A program made the translations under genes and the position numbers. From positions 454 to 64,453 of the forward strand of contig NZ_JABURH010000100.1 in assembly GCF_014762765.1 (NCBI RefSeq): DNA of 64,000 nucleotides, in the 5' to 3' direction. Within the stretch, counting starts at the first letter, position 1; every line of letters begins with the position of its first letter. The stretch comes from Alcanivorax sp. (lineage in GTDB: Bacteria; Pseudomonadota; Gammaproteobacteria; Pseudomonadales; Alcanivoracaceae). This document shows positions 2,215 through 56,384 of the stretch, piece after piece. A model generated the notes under the pieces. The model did no database searches and was not told the DNA's origin. It saw only the letters and a list, made by a program, of their open reading frames with translations.

Positions 2215-2290
2215 TTTTCCACAAAGGCACAGAGCACACAGAGATAAAGTATCATTTCCTCAGTGAACTCTGTGCCCTCTGTGGTAAAAA
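2215..2290. repeat. CACAGAG 9-nt-period palindromic element, copy A
   Basis: Right arm TTTCCTCAGTGAACTCTGTGCCCTCTGTGGT is identical to copy B and is the exact reverse complement of the left arm of copy C. Confidence 0.9.
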
Positions 2291-3848: not shown

Positions 3849-3865
3849 CGTCTCACTCGAAGCCG

Positions 3866-4107
3866 CTGTAGGAGCGGCGCTTGAGCCGCGAACCTTGCGC
3901 AGCAAGGAAGTCGCCCGTAGGGCGATCAGGGCTCCCAGAGCTCGACAGGTTTCTACACTGTGTGCGGCGCCTACATGGTCCCCGATAACGTTGTGGGAAA
4001 CGTGACTGGAAGCGTGTTACTGCGTTTGCCTGAGACTGCAATGCTTGATCGCCCTACAGGCGATTCCGCGCTCCGCGCGGTTCGCGGCTCAAGCGCCGCT
4101 CCTACAG
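3866..4107. repeat. REPIN-like element bounded by a perfect 29-bp GTAG inverted repeat
   Basis: CTGTAGGAGCGGCGCTTGAGCCGCGAACC (3866-3894) and its reverse complement (4079-4107). A nested inner repeat GTAGGGCGATCA/TGATCGCCCTAC is present. Confidence 0.85.
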
Positions 4108-4152
4108 TCGCTTCGTAGAAGGCATTTCCAGCGAAGCGTAGCTTGTAGCGAA

Positions 4153-8224: not shown

Positions 8225-8320
8225 CTAACACGCTCCTTGAAGTGAAAAGACACCGCAAGGGTAATGCTATGGACAGGAAATCCAAAGACTGAAACGCCAA
8301 ATACGCCAACTACACAGCCG

Positions 8321-8534
8321 CTGTAGGAGCGCCTCTCGAGGCGCGAACCGGCCGTGGCATGCTTTAGCTTACAGACTAACCTGCATACAACTGGCGAGCC
8401 CTGAAACGCCTGATCGCCCTGCGGACGATTTCCGTGCAAGCGCGGTTCGCGCCTCGAGAGGCGTTATTCGCTGCACTCACCCTTCGGGCCGCACGGAACT
8501 ACGTGTGTTACTCCGCTACGCTCCGTTCCTACAG
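8321..8534. repeat. REPIN-like GTAG element whose right arm is interrupted by a ~63-nt insert
   Basis: Left arm CTGTAGGAGCGCCTCTCGAGGCGCGAACCG. Right arm is CGGTTCGCGCCTCGAGAGGCG (8443-8463) + insert + TCCTACAG (8527-8534). Inner TGATCGCCCT is shared with the 3866 element. Confidence 0.8.
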
Positions 8535-8549
8535 CAGCCTTGTCGCTAA

Positions 8550-15546: not shown

Positions 15547-16656
15547 ATGGCTGCGGATCTGTTTTTGTTAGGGTGCACCCTGGTCTTCGGGGTGAGCTTT
15601 CGCTTTCTCTTCCATCACCTGCCGCAAGAACGCTGGCAATTCGTCGCCTCGTTACCCCTGAAGAAAAACAGCGATGGCTCCTGGCAAGGCCTGAACCTGA
15701 CTTTCTATGGGTTATTTACCGGCATTGCAGGCGGGCTCGGGGTTGCCGCCTTCATTCTGCTCACCGCCTCCGCTGGCGTAGCCCTTGGTACTGCCCTGCT
15801 GCTAACGCTGGGAGTGCTGACCATTTGCCTGCCTGCGGCCAAGATAATTGCCACTGTGGTGGAAAAAAACCGCCATGGTTTTACCGTGGGCGGCGCCAGC
15901 TTTGTGGGCATTATCATCGCCCCGCTTTTTCTCTGGCTGGCTGACCTGGCCAGCCAGAGCTGGTGGGACACGGCCCTGCCGATTCTGCCCATGCTGGCGG
16001 CCATGTCCATTGCCTATGTGCTGGGTGAAGGCATCGGCCGGCTGGCGTGTATCAGCTTCGGCTGCTGTTACGGCAAGGCACTAAATCGCTCACCACGGTG
16101 GGCCCAGCGCCTGTTCTGTACCCTTAATCATGTGTTTATCGGCAAGACCAAGAAGATTGCCTTTGCCGGGGAAATGGAGGCGGTAAAGGTGATCCCCATC
16201 CAGGCAGTCACCTGCGTCATTTATACCGCCCTGGCCCTGCTCTGCAGCGCCCTGTTTTTCCATCGGCAATTTGCCCTGGCCTTTGCCCTGAGCCTGGTGG
16301 GCAGCCAGTTGTGGCGGGTGTATTCCGAGACACTGCGGGCAGATTATCGGGGCGGCAGCAAGCTGTTCTCCGTCTACCAACTGATGGCACTACTGGCCGC
16401 GCTCTATGGCGTTGCCATCAGCCTGGCGTTACCTGCCCATGCCGCCCTTGCCCCGGATCTGGCTGCCGGGCTGGGCGCCCTGTGGTCACCGGGCGTCATC
16501 CTCAGCCTGCAGGTCATCACCCTGGTCATGTTCTTCTTCTCCGGCACCAGCACCATCACCACCGGCGAACTCCGCTTCGGCCTGGCCGCAGACTGGCGCA
16601 GCCAGGCGGGGTGTGAAAAGGAAGGGTGCAAGGGAGAAGGCAAAGCTGTGGCATAA
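15547..16656 (+). CDS. prolipoprotein diacylglyceryl transferase (Lgt)-like membrane protein
   Basis: Multi-TM, with GFTVGGA, GIGRLACISFGCCYG and RVYSETLRAD. SD GAGGAG. Confidence 0.65.
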   Translation: MAADLFLLGCTLVFGVSFRFLFHHLPQERWQFVASLPLKKNSDGSWQGLNLTFYGLFTGIAGGLGVAAFILLTASAGVALGTALLLTLGVLTICLPAAKIIATVVEKNRHGFTVGGASFVGIIIAPLFLWLADLASQSWWDTALPILPMLAAMSIAYVLGEGIGRLACISFGCCYGKALNRSPRWAQRLFCTLNHVFIGKTKKIAFAGEMEAVKVIPIQAVTCVIYTALALLCSALFFHRQFALAFALSLVGSQLWRVYSETLRADYRGGSKLFSVYQLMALLAALYGVAISLALPAHAALAPDLAAGLGALWSPGVILSLQVITLVMFFFSGTSTITTGELRFGLAADWRSQAGCEKEGCKGEGKAVA

Positions 16657-16664
16657 AACCCATA

Positions 16665-16738
16665 TTTCACCACAGAGGGCACAGAGGACACGGAGAAAAA
16701 CGCTTTCCTCAGTGAACTCTGTGCCCTCTGTGGTGAAA
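16665..16738. repeat. CACAGAG 9-nt-period palindromic element, copy B
   Basis: TTTCACCACAGAGGGCACAGAGGACACGGAG...CTCAGTGAACTCTGTGCCCTCTGTGGTGAAA, between convergent genes. Confidence 0.9.
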
Positions 16739-16767
16739 CAGGTCTTTTGCACAAGCCCGGCAAAGCA

Positions 16768-17817
16768 TCACCCCAACGCCACCGCCTTCACCTGTGCGTA
16801 GAGCTGGGCACCTGGAAATACTTCCAGCTCCCGGGCGGAGCGGCTGGAGATGCGGGCCAGCAGGCGTTGATCGCCCAGGGCCAGCTGCACCATGGCCTGG
16901 CCCGGGCCGACTTCGCGCAGGCCGACCACCTGCACCGGATGGATATTGAGGATGCTGGAATCCTGCGGCGTCTGGCGACACAGACTCACATCCCGGGCGG
17001 CAATACGGAGGCGCACCGGTTCATCGCCCGCCACCGGCTGTGCCGCCGGCAGCCAGAAGGTCTGCTGCGCAACGGTCACCGCCTGCAAATGATCCTGGCT
17101 GTCGTAATCCCCCAGCTCGCCGTACAGCAAGGCGGTGGCATCGCCCCGCTGGGCCAGCGGACCATCCAGCCGGGACAGCTCCTCATGGGCCTTGCCACTG
17201 GCCACGATACGGCCCTGCTCCATCAGCCAGACCTGCCGCGACAGGGTCAGTAACTCATCCAGATCATGAGTGACGTAGATCACCGGCACCCGCCTGGCAA
17301 TCTCACTGACCATGCCCAGCAGTTCCTGCTTGTGACCGTGATCCAGGCCTGACAGGGGTTCATCCAGTAACAGCAGTTCCGGCCCAGCCAGTAGCGCTCG
17401 AGCCAGTGCCACCCGTTGAGCCTCGCCACCGGACAGTGTCGCCACTGAGCGATCCAGCAAAGCTTCGATTCGCGTTTGGTTGACCACCCTGTTCAGGTCC
17501 CCTGCCTTTCCCCGGCGCTTCATCACGTAGGTCAGATTGCCGCGTACACTCAAATGGCGGAACAGGGTCGGCTCCTGAAACATCATGCCCAGGGGGCGCT
17601 CCCAGGGCGGCAGCTTGACCTCATCGGTTTGCCATAACTGCTCACCGAAGCGAACCTCGCCATCGCAATCCTGAAGGCCCGCGAGCATACGCAGCAGCGT
17701 GCTTTTACCGGAACCGGAAGGGCCGAACAGCACTGTCACTCCCGTGGCCGCGAGCTGTGCCTGCACCTGCAGGCGGCACTGCCCCACCTGTCCGGACAGG
17801 GAGAATGCCAGGCTCAT
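16768..17817 (-). CDS. modC: molybdate ABC transporter ATP-binding subunit
   Basis: [22 protein letters not shown] and a C-terminal Mop/TOBE domain ([11 protein letters not shown]). Confidence 0.93.
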
Positions 17818-18497
17818 GGCAGCACCCCCGCGGTCTGTTTGCGCTGCCAGCGAAACAGGGCCCACAGCATCAGCACCGAGGCCACCAGCAACACGGCGGC
17901 CAGCCGGTGGGCATTGGCGTAATCCCCCGCCTCCACATGCTCATAAAGCGCCACAGAGGCCACCCGGGTTTCACCGGCCAGGCTGCCGCCGATCATCAGC
18001 ACCACACCGAATTCTCCCAGGGTATGGGCAATACCAAGAATGGCCGCAGTGGCATAACCCTGGCGGGCCTGTGGAATCACCAACGAAAAGAAGCGGTCCA
18101 TGGGTCGTGCACCGGACACCGCTGCCATATCCAGCTGGCGGGGCTCAATGGCTGCGAAGGCATTCTTGAGGGGTTGCAGGACGAACGGCAGCGAATAGAC
18201 CAGCGAGCCAATCACCAGACCGGTAAAGCTGAACGCCAGGGAGCGTGCATCCTCCCATTGCGCGAACCAGCCGCCCGGACCATTCGGGCCCAGCACGATC
18301 AGCAGATAAAAACCCAGTACCGATGGCGGCAGTACCAGCGGGAGCGCCAGCAAGGCTTCCAGCAGCGCCTGTCCGGGCAAGCGGCGTCGGGCCAGCCACC
18401 AGGCCAGCGGCGTACATAGCATCAGCAGGATGACGGTGGTGACCAGCGCAAGTTTGATGCTGACCCACAGGGCCAGCCAGTCGCCATCATTCAACAT
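17814..18497 (-). CDS. modB: molybdate ABC transporter permease
   Basis: [15 protein letters not shown] and [15 protein letters not shown]. Confidence 0.95.
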
Positions 18498-19224: not shown

Positions 19225-19325
19225 GGAGGCTCCACGACGATGACCTGGCAGGGCCCAGTCTATGTCATCACGCCGGGCGGCACTATTGGTGATCCGTACC
19301 GGAAACTGGTCTCCTACAACAGAAG

Positions 19326-19395
19326 CGAGGTACGAGTAGTGAGTAACGAAAACAAGCTTTTTGCTCTTCGCTACTCGTCACTCGTGTCTCGAAAC
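19326..19395. repeat. CGAG 7-nt-period palindromic element, copy 1
   Basis: Left arm CGAGGTA CGAGTAG TGAGTAA CGAAAAC; right arm TTCGCTA CTCGTCA CTCGTGT CTCGAAAC. Confidence 0.75.
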
Positions 19396-33861: not shown

Positions 33862-34251
33862 ATGAGTAAAAAACAGACCTACAGCATCGGCGAGCTGGCC
33901 CGGGAATTTGATGTCACCACCCGCACCATCCGCTTTTACGAAGACCAGGGCCTGGTGACTCCGCAACGACGGGGCCAGACTCGGGTCTACACCCCCGCCG
34001 ATCGGGTCACCCTGAAACTGATACTGCGCGGTAAGCGACTGGGATTTTCCCTGGCCGAATCCAAAGAGTTGATCCGCATGTACCAGCCCCAGGGCGATAA
34101 CCGCAGTCAGCTTCTCGCCCTGCAGGGAAAGATTCACCAGCGCCGAGCACAATTGGAACAACAACTTCGGGATATTCAGGTCATGCAGCGGGAACTCGAT
34201 GACGCCGAGCAGCGCTGCCTGGACGCCCTTCACGATCTGGAGACACAATAA
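33862..34251 (+). CDS. liuR: MerR family regulator LiuR
   Basis: [22 protein letters not shown] and [14 protein letters not shown]. Stop overlaps the liuA start. Confidence 0.92.
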
Positions 34252-35414
34252 TGTTCAACAGCACTTTCAATTTTCATCTGGGCGAAACTATCGATGCGCT
34301 CCGTGATACGGCCCGTGCCTTTGCCCAGAAAGAAATTGCCCCCCTGGCCGCCGAAATCGACCGCAGCAATGAGTTCCCCCTGCCGTTGTGGAAAAAAATG
34401 GGCGATCTGGGCCTGCTGGGTATTACCGCTGACGAAGAATACGGCGGCGCCAACATGGGCTACCTGGCCCACACCATTGTGGTAGAGGAAATTTCCCGGG
34501 CTTCTGCGTCTATCGGTCTCTCCTACGGCGCCCACTCCAACCTGTGCGTCAACCAGATTGTTATCAACGGTACCGACGAGCAGAAAGCCCGGTATCTGCC
34601 CAAACTGATCAGCGGTGACCATATCGGTGCCCTGGCCATGAGCGAGCCCGGTGCCGGGTCCGATGTGGTCAGCATGAAGCTGCGCGCCGAAAAGAAAGGC
34701 GACCGCTACATCCTCAATGGCAACAAGATGTGGATTACCAACGGCCCTGACGCCCATACCTATGTGATCTACGCCAAGACTGACAGCAATGCAGGCCCCC
34801 GAGGCATCACAGCGTTCATCGTCGAGCGTGATTTCCCCGGCTTCTCCCGCGCTCAAAAGCTGGACAAACTGGGCATGCGTGGCTCCAACACCTGCGAGCT
34901 GGTGTTCGAAGACTGCGAAGTCCCCGCCGAAAACATCCTCGGCAAGGAAAACGAGGGTGTGAAAGTGCTGATGAGCGGCCTGGATTACGAGCGCACCATT
35001 CTTTCCGGGGGCCCGGTAGGCGTGATGCAGGCCTGTATGGACGAAGTGGTGCCCTACATCCACGAGCGCAAACAGTTTGGTCAGGCCATCGGCGAGTTCC
35101 AGCTGATACAGGGCAAGATCGCCGACATGTACGTGATGCTCAATACCAGCCGCAGCTATCTCTACCATGTGGCTCAGGCCTGTGACCGCGGCGAGACCAA
35201 CCGCAAGGATGCCGCCGGCGTGATCCTCTACTGCGCCGAAAATGCCACCAAGATGGCACTGGAAGCGATCCAGACCCTGGGCGGTAACGGCTACATCAAC
35301 GACTACAACACCGGTCGCCTGCTGCGCGACGCCAAGCTCTATGAAATCGGCGCCGGCACCAGTGAAATCCGTCGCATGCTGATCGGCCGCGAGCTGTTTA
35401 ACGAAACCGCCTGA
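34251..35414 (+). CDS. liuA: isovaleryl-CoA dehydrogenase
   Basis: [26 protein letters not shown] (IVD catalytic Glu) and [10 protein letters not shown]. Confidence 0.95.
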
Positions 35415-35432: not shown

Positions 35433-35503
35433 TTTTCACCACAGAGGGCACAGAGTTCACTGAGGAAAACCTTATCTCTGTGTGCTCTGTGACCTCTGTG
35501 GTA
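35433..35503. repeat. CACAGAG 9-nt-period palindromic element, copy C (inverted relative to A and B)
   Basis: ACCACAGAGGGCACAGAGTTCACTGAGGAAA...TTATCTCTGTGTGCTCTGTGACCTCTGTGGT in the liuA-liuB spacer. Confidence 0.9.
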
Positions 35504-35527
35504 AGAAACGGTTTTTGCGAGACTCCT

Positions 35528-37135
35528 ATGCCCAAGATCAATAGCCAGATCAATCCTGCCAGCCCGGAATTTCAGGCCAATCGGGAACACAACCTGACAC
35601 TGCGCCAGCAGCTGCAGGAAAAACTGGACCACATCGCCCACGGCGGTGGCGAAGCCGCCGAACAGCGCCTGCGCGAGCGCGGCAAGCTGCCGGTCCGTGA
35701 ACGTATCAACCTGCTGCTGGACCCGGGCTCCCCGTTTCTGGAGATTTCCGCCCTGGCCGCCGAAGGGGTCTATGGGGAAGACGTGCCGGCGGCGGGCTGT
35801 GTGGGCGGCATCGGTCAGATCCACGGCGTGGAATGCATGATCGTCGCTAACGATCCCTCGGTAAAAGGCGGCAGCTACTACCCGCTGACCGTGAAAAAAC
35901 ACCTGCGGGCCCAGGCCATTGCCGCCGAAAACCGGCTTCCCTGTGTCTATCTGGTGGATTCCGGCGGTGCCAACCTGCCCCGTCAGGATGAGGTCTTCCC
36001 GGATCGCGAACACTTTGGCCGCATCTTCTTCAACATGGCCAACATGTCCGCCCGCGGCATTCCCCAGATCAGTGTGGTACTGGGCTCCTGCACCGCTGGC
36101 GGCGCCTACGTGCCGGCCATGGCCGACGAAGTGATCATGGTCAAGGAACAGGCCACCATCTTCCTGGCCGGCCCGCCGCTGGTGAAAGCGGCCACCGGCG
36201 AGGTAGTCACCGCCGAGGAGCTGGGCGGCGCCAACCTGCACTGTGAACAATCCGGGGTGGCCGATCATCTGGCCGAAGACGAACCCCACGCCCTGGAACT
36301 GGCCCGCCGCTCCATTGCCCACCTGAACTGGCACAAGCCCGATCAGGTCAACCGTCAGCCGGTACGGCCGCCAGCTTACGATCCCAACGAGCTTTACGGC
36401 GTCATTCCCACCACGACCCGCCAGCCCATGCCGGCACGGGAACTGATTGCGCGCATCGTGGACGGCTCCGAACTGGATGAATTCAAGGCCCGCTATGGCA
36501 CTACCCTGGTGTGCGGCTTTGCCCATATCCACGGCTATCCGGTGGGCCTTCTTGCCAACGATGGGGTGCTTTATTCCGAGTCTGCCCAGAAAGGCGCGCA
36601 CTTCATCGAACTGTGTAACCAGCGAAAGATTCCGCTGCTGTTCCTGCAGAACATCACCGGCTTCATGGTGGGCAAGAAATACGAGTCCGAAGGCATCGCC
36701 AAACACGGCGCCAAGATGGTCAACGCTGTGGCCTGTGCCAGCGTGCCCAAATTCACCGTGATCACCGGTGGCAGCTTCGGCGCCGGTAACTATGGCATGT
36801 GTGGACGCTCCTACGATCCGCGCTTCATGTTCATGTGGCCCAATGCCCGTATTGGCGTAATGGGCGGGGAACAGGCCGCCAGCGTGCTGACTCAGGTAAA
36901 GCAGGCCTCGTTGAAGAAGAAAGGTCAGCAATGGAGTGACGAGGAAGCTGCCGCCTTCCAGGCAGATATGACCGAGCGCTACGAAGAAATGGCGCAACCC
37001 TGGTACGCCAGCGCACGGCTGTGGGACGACGGCGTGATCGATCCCGCCGACACCCGCGATGTGCTCGGCCTGGCCATTTCTGCCAGCTTGAATGCGCCGA
37101 TTGAAGAGACACGGTATGGCGTGTTTCGGATGTGA
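35528..37135 (+). CDS. liuB: methylcrotonoyl-CoA carboxylase beta subunit
   Basis: [24 protein letters not shown] and ARLWDDG. Confidence 0.95.
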
Positions 37136-37139
37136 TTGG

Positions 37140-37168
37140 GTCGGACGTCCGACGTCTGACGTCCGACG
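37140..37168. repeat. heptamer tandem repeat TCNGACG x4
   Basis: TCGGACG TCCGACG TCTGACG TCCGACG, including the perfect palindrome GTCGGACGTCCGAC. Confidence 0.75.
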
Positions 37169-37189
37169 CTCAAAAACCTGGAGCAGGAT

Positions 37190-37963: not shown

Positions 37964-37972
37964 TCCACTACC

Positions 37973-38037
37973 CGTAGGAGCGTCGCTGGCGGCGCGATAA
38001 GCCACGACGAAATCGCGCCGCCAGCGACGCTCCTACG
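37973..38037. repeat. GTAG REP doublet, perfect 26-bp inverted repeat
   Basis: CGTAGGAGCGTCGCTGGCGGCGCGAT, 13-nt spacer, then its reverse complement. Confidence 0.85.
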
Positions 38038-38056
38038 GCAGGACAAAGGCAACACC

Positions 38057-45183: not shown

Positions 45184-45254
45184 GTTGCGAGAAGCGGGTT
45201 ACAAGGAGCGAAAAGCTGCTTTTTTTCGGAACTCGTACCTCGTGACTCGCAACT
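45184..45254. repeat. CGAG 7-nt-period palindromic element, copy 2 (inverted relative to copy 1)
   Basis: Reverse complement shares CGAGGTACGAGT and the AAAA..AGC..TTTT..TTCGCT core with 19326-19395. Confidence 0.7.
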
Positions 45255-56294: not shown

Positions 56295-56384
56295 CAATTG
56301 AAAATTGATAATGAATAATTGATAACGAAAGAGGCGCCCAATCAAAGCGCCTCTTTTTTTGTTTTAGCTATCAATTGTCAATTA
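56295..56384. repeat. inverted AATTGA heptamer arrays flanking a terminator
   Basis: CAATTGA AAATTGA TAATGAA TAATTGA TAACGAA ... TATCAATTGTCAATTA. Confidence 0.8.
56328..56360. terminator. intrinsic terminator of htpX
   Basis: AAAGAGGCGC-N9-GCGCCTCTTTTTTT. Confidence 0.85.

Follow-up and report, generated by a model that had tools for sequence, protein, structure and literature searches.

Gene-less word-array palindromes at Alcanivorax gene junctions and their likeness to the arms of GxxExxY (PF13366) cassettes

The window, that is, the whole 64,000-nt stretch of Alcanivorax sp. DNA analysed here, contains three copies of one palindromic unit (Table 1). Copy 1 begins 8 nt past the stop codon of a TrmB-like methyltransferase gene. 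Copy 2 lies between two convergent genes: modC, for a molybdate ABC ATPase with a TOBE domain, and a gene for an LGT-like membrane protein, for which an exact-protein look-up gave no match. The stop codon of the lgt-like gene is 8 nt before copy 2, and that of modC is 29 nt from it, upstream in the sense direction of the copy. Copy 3 is found within the liu operon, in the spacer between liuA and liuB, and reads in the direction of the operon.

Table 1. Coordinates of the palindromic units, neighbouring genes and other repeats in the window
Feature	Position	Strand	Remarks
GTAG-type REP/REPIN-like palindromes	2110-2200, 3858-4115, 8312-8543, 37972-38038		GTAGGAGCG... and GGTGGATTA... types; cluster 2110-2200 abuts copy 1
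Copy 1 (type A)	2216-2290	-	F arm 2255-2285; partner arm 2216-2246
lgt-like gene (LGT-like membrane protein)	15547-16656	+	Convergent with modC
Copy 2 (type B)	16665-16738	-	Read on the - strand: TTTC, F arm 16704-16734, loop 16700-16703 (4 nt), partner arm 16665-16699
modC	16768-17865	-	Relatives called at 349 aa
CGAG-word palindromes	19321-19389, 45184-45253		Second periodic palindrome family
liuA (isovaleryl-CoA dehydrogenase type)	34251-35414	+	Stop at 35414, 5' of copy 3
Copy 3 (type A)	35433-35508	+	F arm 35438-35468; partner arm 35475-35502
liuB (carboxyltransferase subunit)	35528-37135	+	Start at 35528, 3' of copy 3
GACGTC-word short element	37139-37169	.	liuB-liuC junction
AT-rich heptamer arms (AATTGA-type)	56309-56384		32-nt centre; third word vocabulary in the window

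Each unit is an imperfect palindrome of about 72 nt, in which two inverted arrays of three 7-nt words (CAC[A/T/G]GAG, or more loosely CACNGAG) at 9-nt spacing face each other across an A/T-rich loop of 4-15 nt. One arm, the 31-mer ACCACAGAGGGCACAGAGTTCACTGAGGAAA, is the same in all three copies; it occurs at exactly three sites in the window (Table 1), where shuffled sequences lead one to expect none, so that three palindromes sharing an identical 31-nt arm, as the first-pass annotation had them, are confirmed. We refer to this constant arm as the F arm, and its equivalent in the gene-bearing relatives discussed below sits upstream of the gene. Its words begin at offsets 2, 11 and 20, and the partner arms are periodic too. 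A search with the two-word pattern CACAGAGNNCACAGAG, allowing up to 2 mismatches, gave 12 matches against 0.39 expected, 11 of which are inside the three units. The period of 9 nt, repeated three times per arm, thus holds in general but has one exception, the first period of copy 1, which a 1-nt deletion has reduced to 8 nt. The units also conform to a more general design, CNCNRAG words at a period of 8-9 nt with about three words per inverted array. All three are bounded by TTT(C)ACC...GGT(G)AAA; in copy 2, which contains the word CACGGAG, the outer 22 bp are perfectly complementary. As a rule of placement, we considered that the constant arm always lies 3' of a gene in the sense direction, and dropped it in this strict form, with a fit of about 7 in 10 loci that itself depends on ORF calls that are ambiguous in high-GC DNA.

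The second arm had been described as variable. It does differ between copies, but not freely, as two conserved subtypes can be distinguished. Type A (ATCTCTGTGTGCTCTGTGMCCTCTGTGGTAA) occurs in copies 1 and 3 as well as in A. jadensis T9, Alcanivorax sp. IL2 (locus L124) and A. nanhaiticus (L129), while type B is found in copy 2 and at a second IL2 locus (L127). The mismatches between the two arms of type A are identical at every locus, and complete 72-nt units, mismatches included, recur at unlinked loci in several species (three distinct loci for type A, two for type B). Sharing of the same mismatches at unlinked places indicates that whole units have been copied and did not evolve locally.

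All three copies fold into very stable hairpins on both strands (dG -30 to -63 kcal/mol, z -4.9 to -10.9 relative to shuffles), and all three lie 8-29 nt past stop codons. Both facts agree with an explanation in which the units serve the host as RNA hairpins, whether by protecting 3' ends, by partial termination or by offering sites for RNase III-type processing, much as E. coli REP/BIME hairpins stabilise upstream mRNA; their likeness to cassette arms would then be incidental or secondary. Copy 2 is moreover the sole structure between its convergent genes, at a place where relatives have a GC-rich hairpin, and assembled metatranscriptome contigs run through copy 3. On the other hand, strong termination at copy 3 would be harmful, as it lies within an operon, and termination of the canonical kind receives no help from the sequence. 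We rejected an intrinsic (Rho-independent) terminator because none of the three sites matched a simple terminator pattern and the stem is followed in all copies by GAAA or AAGAAA, with no T-run. There was no Rfam match at gathering thresholds either, and a relaxed search yielded only sub-threshold eukaryotic miRNA-hairpin models, as a generic long hairpin would. Overall, we regard a host-useful RNA hairpin as an unlikely primary explanation of the units.

Several classes of known element were set aside as well. The units are not REPs or REPINs of the GTAG type, as had been stated at the outset: they lack a GTAG-type or any other REP head, they end in TTTCACC and GGTGAAA, and their arms are word arrays in place of a single short stem, while the GTAG-type REPs that the window does contain (Table 1) make up a separate family. 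Nor are they classical MITEs or other transposons, as no target-site duplication was found at any of 12 aligned copies, and neither a transposase relative, a related IS nor a clean empty site was seen. Integron attC sites were rejected because each copy stands alone between housekeeping genes and lacks a terminal GTTRRRY.

The family extends well past the window. The exact 31-mer was scanned once over the genome contigs of species representatives, with the window's own genome outside the set, and was found in nine stretches: three copies in Alcanivorax sp. IL2 and one copy each in A. jadensis T9, A. hongdengensis, A. nanhaiticus, Alcanivorax sp. S6407, an Alcanivorax MAG and an Acidobacteriota MAG. 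It is thus present in six Alcanivorax assemblies besides that of the window, the nearest of these being IL2 (about 90% identity) and T9 (about 88%). In DNA metagenomes where this organism is represented with 0-1 mismatches, the F arm was present at 38-75 times the depth of its flanks in three runs, and a fourth run of more mixed composition gave about 440 times; being imperfect ratios of summed contig depths that may include other organisms, these values are taken only as "tens of copies". In one run (X9) the F arm is joined to about 20 different flanks, many of them on contigs at the organism's own depth of 35-47. On summed contig depths, then, we take this Alcanivorax lineage to have tens of copies per genome, and the count of three given earlier is exact for the window but falls short of what lies outside it. 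Metagenome contigs representing other copies diverge from the window at 16665, 16704 and 16738-16740 (copy 2) and at 2255 and 2288-2290 (copy 1). These points agree with the unit boundaries originally drawn from the sequence alone, and at copy 2 they coincide also with the inner end of the F arm.

Two of the Alcanivorax genomes carry the arms 117-138 nt apart with other DNA between them (L123 3610-3815 and L128 6045-6230), including a REP-like hairpin in L123, which indicates that the loop accepts insertions. The copy from the Acidobacteriota, in a soil Candidatus Angelobacter MAG (L125 4169-4199), is a solo 31-nt arm after a small ORF beside bioB, about 1.2 kb from a CACNRAG palindrome of 8-nt period. 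We lean towards coincidence within a small vocabulary, rather than recent transfer, for this exact match, since fixing the words and ends leaves only about 8 of the 31 letters free to vary, and since the arm is solo and in an unrelated context.

What is conserved in these palindromes seems to be the words and not the stem. In 32 CACNRAG palindromes from phage contigs and Alcanivorax, the two arms match each other at 88% of word positions and at 38% of inter-word spacer positions, with 25% expected by chance; the word figure is partly built in, as the search pattern fixes 5 of 7 letters, so that only the low complementarity of the spacers is informative in this contrast. The F arm is invariant over tens of copies in six species while partner arm and loop vary, and two metagenomes show no variant at 4% of depth or more anywhere in 16708-16737. 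If pairing in RNA were the selected property, compensatory change would be predicted, whereas most inter-word spacer positions do not pair and the sequence of one arm stays fixed as its partner changes. Mostly unpaired spacers together with an invariant F arm lead us to infer sequence-specific reading of the words, and this suggests that a perfect stem is not what selection maintains. The arrays would most likely be read by a trans-acting protein, given that it is the words that are conserved and that one arm is invariant.

Comparison of orthologous junctions provides some history for the units. The liuA-liuB spacer is 35 nt or shorter in 22 of 55 relatives, down to 1 nt, and longer spacers hold assorted repeats; from these short spacers it follows that copy 3 is an insertion into a once-tight junction. 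A. jadensis T9 has the copy 3 unit at the same position, in a spacer 98% identical to that of the window as against 88-93% for the flanks, a difference that recent recombination alone could produce without any constraint. Copy 1 is similarly shared with IL2 (L124) at 93% identity versus 83% for the flank. In two comparisons between species the spacers show higher conservation than the coding flanks, a further point on the side of a useful RNA hairpin that has to be set against the absence of the unit from these junctions in close relatives. On the metagenome contig L130, whose flanks are 97-100% identical to the window, the liuA-liuB spacer holds an unrelated 97-nt palindrome of GACGTCTGA words (L130 2104-2200). 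This GACGTC-word allele is also present in a remoter relative (L131) and in two metatranscriptome assemblies; the short element at the liuB-liuC junction of the window (Table 1) shares its vocabulary.

The borders of this exchange can be located. In the window, the final ~35 nt of liuA (stop codon included) and the initial ~33 nt of liuB are like those of T9 and unlike those of L130, the otherwise closest strain. T9-like gene ends flanking a T9-like spacer imply that the liuA-liuB allele moved on a short homologous-recombination tract, with no precise insertion.

The junction between modC and the lgt-like gene is even more varied. In A. borkumensis-type genomes the two genes overlap by 23 nt, and the CACAGAG unit is seen there only in the lineage of the window. 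Four groups of closer relatives (ModC 87-95% identical) have spacers of 130-162 nt, composed of a word arm, CGCG, a GC-rich hairpin, CGCG and an inverted word arm. These relatives of 16657-16767 (L227-L232) share a homologous GC-rich hairpin, and each has a heptamer of its own (GTTGAAA, GTTGCAA or GCTACAA); the two arms of each copy are almost perfectly complementary, word variants included, which points either to co-evolution of the arms or to copying of one arm from the other. A spacer of just 20 nt, GTTGAAAGTTCAACGGCTCT, is found in GCA_043559425.1 and in one metagenome allele (L235 2077-2096; the allele of run X12 at window 16637-16768). Of each arm of the L227-type palindromes it retains the outermost word alone, as a 14-nt mini-palindrome, and it looks like the scar of a word-palindrome deletion.

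Words that differ from relative to relative in arms that still match almost perfectly, and a genome that retains just the mini-palindrome of outermost words, are what one would expect of local replication by-products, with slippage amplifying the words and intrastrand template switching making the arms symmetrical, no dedicated enzyme being involved and no function served. As an account of the CACAGAG units we consider this very improbable: it leaves unexplained the identical 72-nt units, mismatches included, at unlinked loci of several species, the invariance of the 31-nt arm over tens of copies and the outer ends held in common with cassettes of Bacteroidota.

The copies are therefore not fixed at orthologous positions, as a plain terminator or stabiliser might be: closer relatives have other palindromes in their place, and remoter ones have tight or overlapping junctions. 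None of the compared alleles displayed a clean gain or loss, with a filled site facing a precisely empty one; the alleles differ over the whole spacer. Of the empty, solo and gene-filled alleles that had been envisaged for orthologous loci, the comparison thus delivered junctions without the unit and junctions with unrelated palindromes, but neither a clean empty site nor, in the Alcanivorax DNA covered, a gene-filled copy.

A link between periodic repeats of this kind and GxxExxY genes had been proposed, and we examined it with a GxxExxY consensus as query, which scores 156 bits on TIGR04256. The search returned at least 8,000 candidate proteins of PF13366, and the DNA around 12 independent family members was read. 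In 11 of the 12 loci the gene has word-array arms or repeats next to it, L240 being the one outside this number. Inverted arms bracket the gene in six of them: L210, with CGCAGAG words; L221, from a Rhodocyclales MAG; L224, from Sphingomonas; L226, from Bernardetia, with CACAGAG and CTCTGTG words; L236, from Bacteroides finegoldii (NZ_OY725952.1), between radA and the gene of a FAD-dependent protein; and L239, from Treponema, with a simple 11-nt inverted repeat. The other five (L220, L223, L225, L237 and L238) have same-word arrays, complete gene-less palindromes or direct repeats beside the gene. Neither the window nor nine 8-kb Alcanivorax loci contain a GxxExxY ORF. The proposed link is accordingly borne out by arm design at independent loci, but not in the Alcanivorax DNA covered.

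The closest match to the window units is the B. finegoldii cassette, which has the same design and the same outer 13-14 nt. Its order is TTCACCACAGAGGACGCAGAGGACACGGAGGAG, 24 nt, the GxxExxY ORF, 9 nt and CTCTGTGACCTCTGTGTCCTCTGTGGTGAA, or, in a fuller reading, ggTTCACCACAGAGGACGCAGAGGACACGGAGGAG, 24 nt, the ORF from ATG to TAA, 9 nt and CTCTGTGACCTCTGTGTCCTCTGTGGTGAAaaa. Cassette and window units have in common the outer ends (those of the family, TTCACCACAGAG...CTCTGTGGTGAA, match the arms around the B. finegoldii gene), three words per arm, the 9-nt period, an A-rich inner tail and a site between co-directional genes; they differ in that the cassette has a 5' leader and a 375-nt ORF where the window units have only a loop of 4-15 nt. 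As they enclose no GxxExxY ORF, the window units are gene-less forms. Outer ends of the type TTCAC...GTGAA unite the window units (TTTCACCACAGAGG / CCCTCTGTGGTGAAA) with the gene-bearing cassettes of B. finegoldii (TTCACCACAGAGG / CCTCTGTGGTGAA) and Sphingomonas (TTCACGCGAAG / CTTCGCGTGAA).

In the cassettes, the array that reads CNCNGAG on the sense strand of the gene is located upstream of the start codon, and its last word together with a GGA/GAA tail often creates a Shine-Dalgarno-like sequence; the F arm of the window units ends likewise, in GAGGAAA. All nine annotated cassettes are co-directional with both neighbouring genes, which suggests that cassettes rely on read-through transcription from the host. 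The Sphingomonas example, on the S. parapaucimobilis plasmid NZ_CP155749.1, has CGCGAAG-word arms and lies 33 nt after fabD and 2 nt before fabG, and hence inside a core fatty-acid synthesis gene pair. With respect to the suggestion that the window units are empty or non-autonomous sites of a mobile cassette, "empty" is a fair term for their structure, as they share the architecture of the arms, and even the outer 13-14 nt, with gene-bearing loci (L236, L226, L224, L221 and L210), but transposon-type mobility does not emerge, the only resolved change being one by homologous recombination.

Arms of this kind are not confined to GxxExxY loci. More than 120 stretches of phage contigs carry CACAGAGNNCACAGAGNNCACNGAG, and no GxxExxY gene was found in 120 phage-contig loci with such arms, so the arms are widespread without the nuclease; what lies between them there is a short loop or an ordinary small phage ORF that gives no informative Pfam match. 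IMG/VR does not contain the exact Alcanivorax arm.

The GxxExxY protein has invariant D, E and K residues of a D...ExK catalytic core. It has no sequence relative in the PDB, and its AlphaFold model (pLDDT 84) shows its best, though weak, similarity to Cas4, AdnAB and lambda exonuclease (TM 0.41-0.55). A 2012 survey of PD-(D/E)XK proteins listed PDDEXK_3 as "function unknown, multiple transfers" (PMC3424549). Our literature search found no published description of the GxxExxY family and no published link between such word-array arms and a GxxExxY nuclease.

The type of element itself was noted in print in 2009, among the Geobacter metallireducens repeats. Aklujkar et al. reported 21 pairs of "class 2 predicted global regulator binding sites", each with three tandem 9-nt repeats TCTCCGTS[Y] (reverse complement CACGGAGA), the two members of a pair occupying opposite strands, with a variable distance between them, in spacers that follow genes or lie within operons (PMC2700814). 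Judged by the legend and site table of that report, the design is that of the window units and the word nearly the same, while the Alcanivorax arm sequence itself is different. The sites are treated there as multicopy sequences only, with no link to a nuclease gene, no turnover between strains and no invariant arm. They were annotated there as putative IHF sites, with IHF/HU given as a guess (PMC2700814). By analogy, the Alcanivorax arrays might be sites for a nucleoid-associated or global regulator of the host of the IHF/HU type. The shared design and near-shared word, operon junctions included, would favour this, as would conservation at the level of words and not of spacers, which fits repeated protein sites. 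Nevertheless, the sites are dispensable and are replaced between near-identical strains, and a host regulator could hardly account for the same design in phage contigs and around one nuclease gene across phyla. Nor do the words match the IHF consensus, WATCAANNNNTTR. We consider regulator binding of this sort quite improbable.

Among established pairings of a repeat and its cognate enzyme, REP-RAYT and Ssn-NTS come closest. REP, BIME and REPIN-RAYT sequences of enterobacteria and Pseudomonas are, like the units, extragenic imperfect palindromes in many copies, after genes and inside operons. The units even combine two arm types in inverted pairs, comparable to the Y and Z palindromic units of BIMEs, and in both cases presence varies between strains. 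The REP-RAYT system differs in its GTAG head, single short stem and HUH tyrosine transposase, where the window units have word arrays and a candidate PD-(D/E)XK nuclease. Small ORFs within long stems of inverted ends are known, too, from the intervening sequences of bacterial 23S rRNA genes (Leptospira, Coxiella), which RNase III removes from rRNA helices. These resemble the cassettes in having the ORF in the sense direction of a host transcript, and gene-less short versions exist too, but they reside in rRNA helices whereas the window units are outside rRNA.

In the Ssn system described by Chenal et al. (2025, PMC11893778), a small nuclease recognises its own many-copy repeat, the NTS/SRM, around other genes. 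The tie between a small nuclease gene and a repeat present in many copies around other genes is common to both cases. Ssn is, however, a GIY-YIG enzyme that has been shown experimentally to cut single-stranded DNA at a defined site (PMC11893778), whereas GxxExxY has a Cas4-like PD-(D/E)XK fold and its putative target repeat is a word array.

Taken together, we favour the reading, with a probability of about 0.55, that the window units are gene-less members of a family of word-array palindromes that bracket GxxExxY genes, and that their words are likely to be read by a trans-acting protein. In full form, the cassette has the gene for a Cas4-like PD-(D/E)XK nuclease of about 125 aa (GxxExxY, PF13366/TIGR04256) between arms of the same kind; the window units look like such a cassette with leader and ORF replaced by a short loop, and the constant 31-nt arm corresponds to the arm upstream of the gene. 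The comparison of junctions shows that the units entered sites that were originally tight, and that they pass from strain to strain as whole-spacer alleles when the genes on either side recombine homologously. The obvious candidate for the protein that probably reads the arrays sequence-specifically is a GxxExxY-type nuclease, and gene conversion or selection at the F arm would keep this arm uniform. In transcripts, the units would form a stable hairpin with periodic mismatches, probably with a side effect on the stability or processing of mRNA 3' ends, and without being a canonical terminator.

We may go a step further and speculate that the words are a modular code for small Cas4-like GxxExxY nucleases, with one word per subunit, and that the invariant arm is a site nicked or cut in trans, leading to gene conversion. 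Such conversion would keep tens of copies identical across species and renew whole spacers, in a system that would have arisen apart from REP-RAYT and Ssn-NTS and would extend through many phyla and into phages. This extension is doubtful, and we offer it as a conjecture. If the arms are indeed the substrate of GxxExxY proteins, a protein family that ranks among the largest in prokaryotes without an assigned function ("function unknown") gains a concrete and cheap biochemical test, and the gene-less units become a new counterpart to REP-RAYT and Ssn-NTS. Independently of the enzyme, the Alcanivorax data show that strains with 97-100% identity in the flanks can differ by a refilling of operon junctions and convergent gene ends with unrelated palindromes, which matters for operon annotation, strain typing and the turnover of intergenic DNA.

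Periodic repeats of other vocabularies are also found nearby and at the same junction elsewhere. The CGAG-word palindromes of the window, built from CGAG-type heptamers, have the same GAAAA-loop-TTTT centre as the CACAGAG units. In some other Gammaproteobacteria, the liuA-liuB junction is filled with direct tandem word arrays and not with palindromes, with units of about 14 nt (AGTAGAAAATAGCG-type) in L161 and of about 25 nt (GCCCAAAGCTGACAAC-type) in L169.
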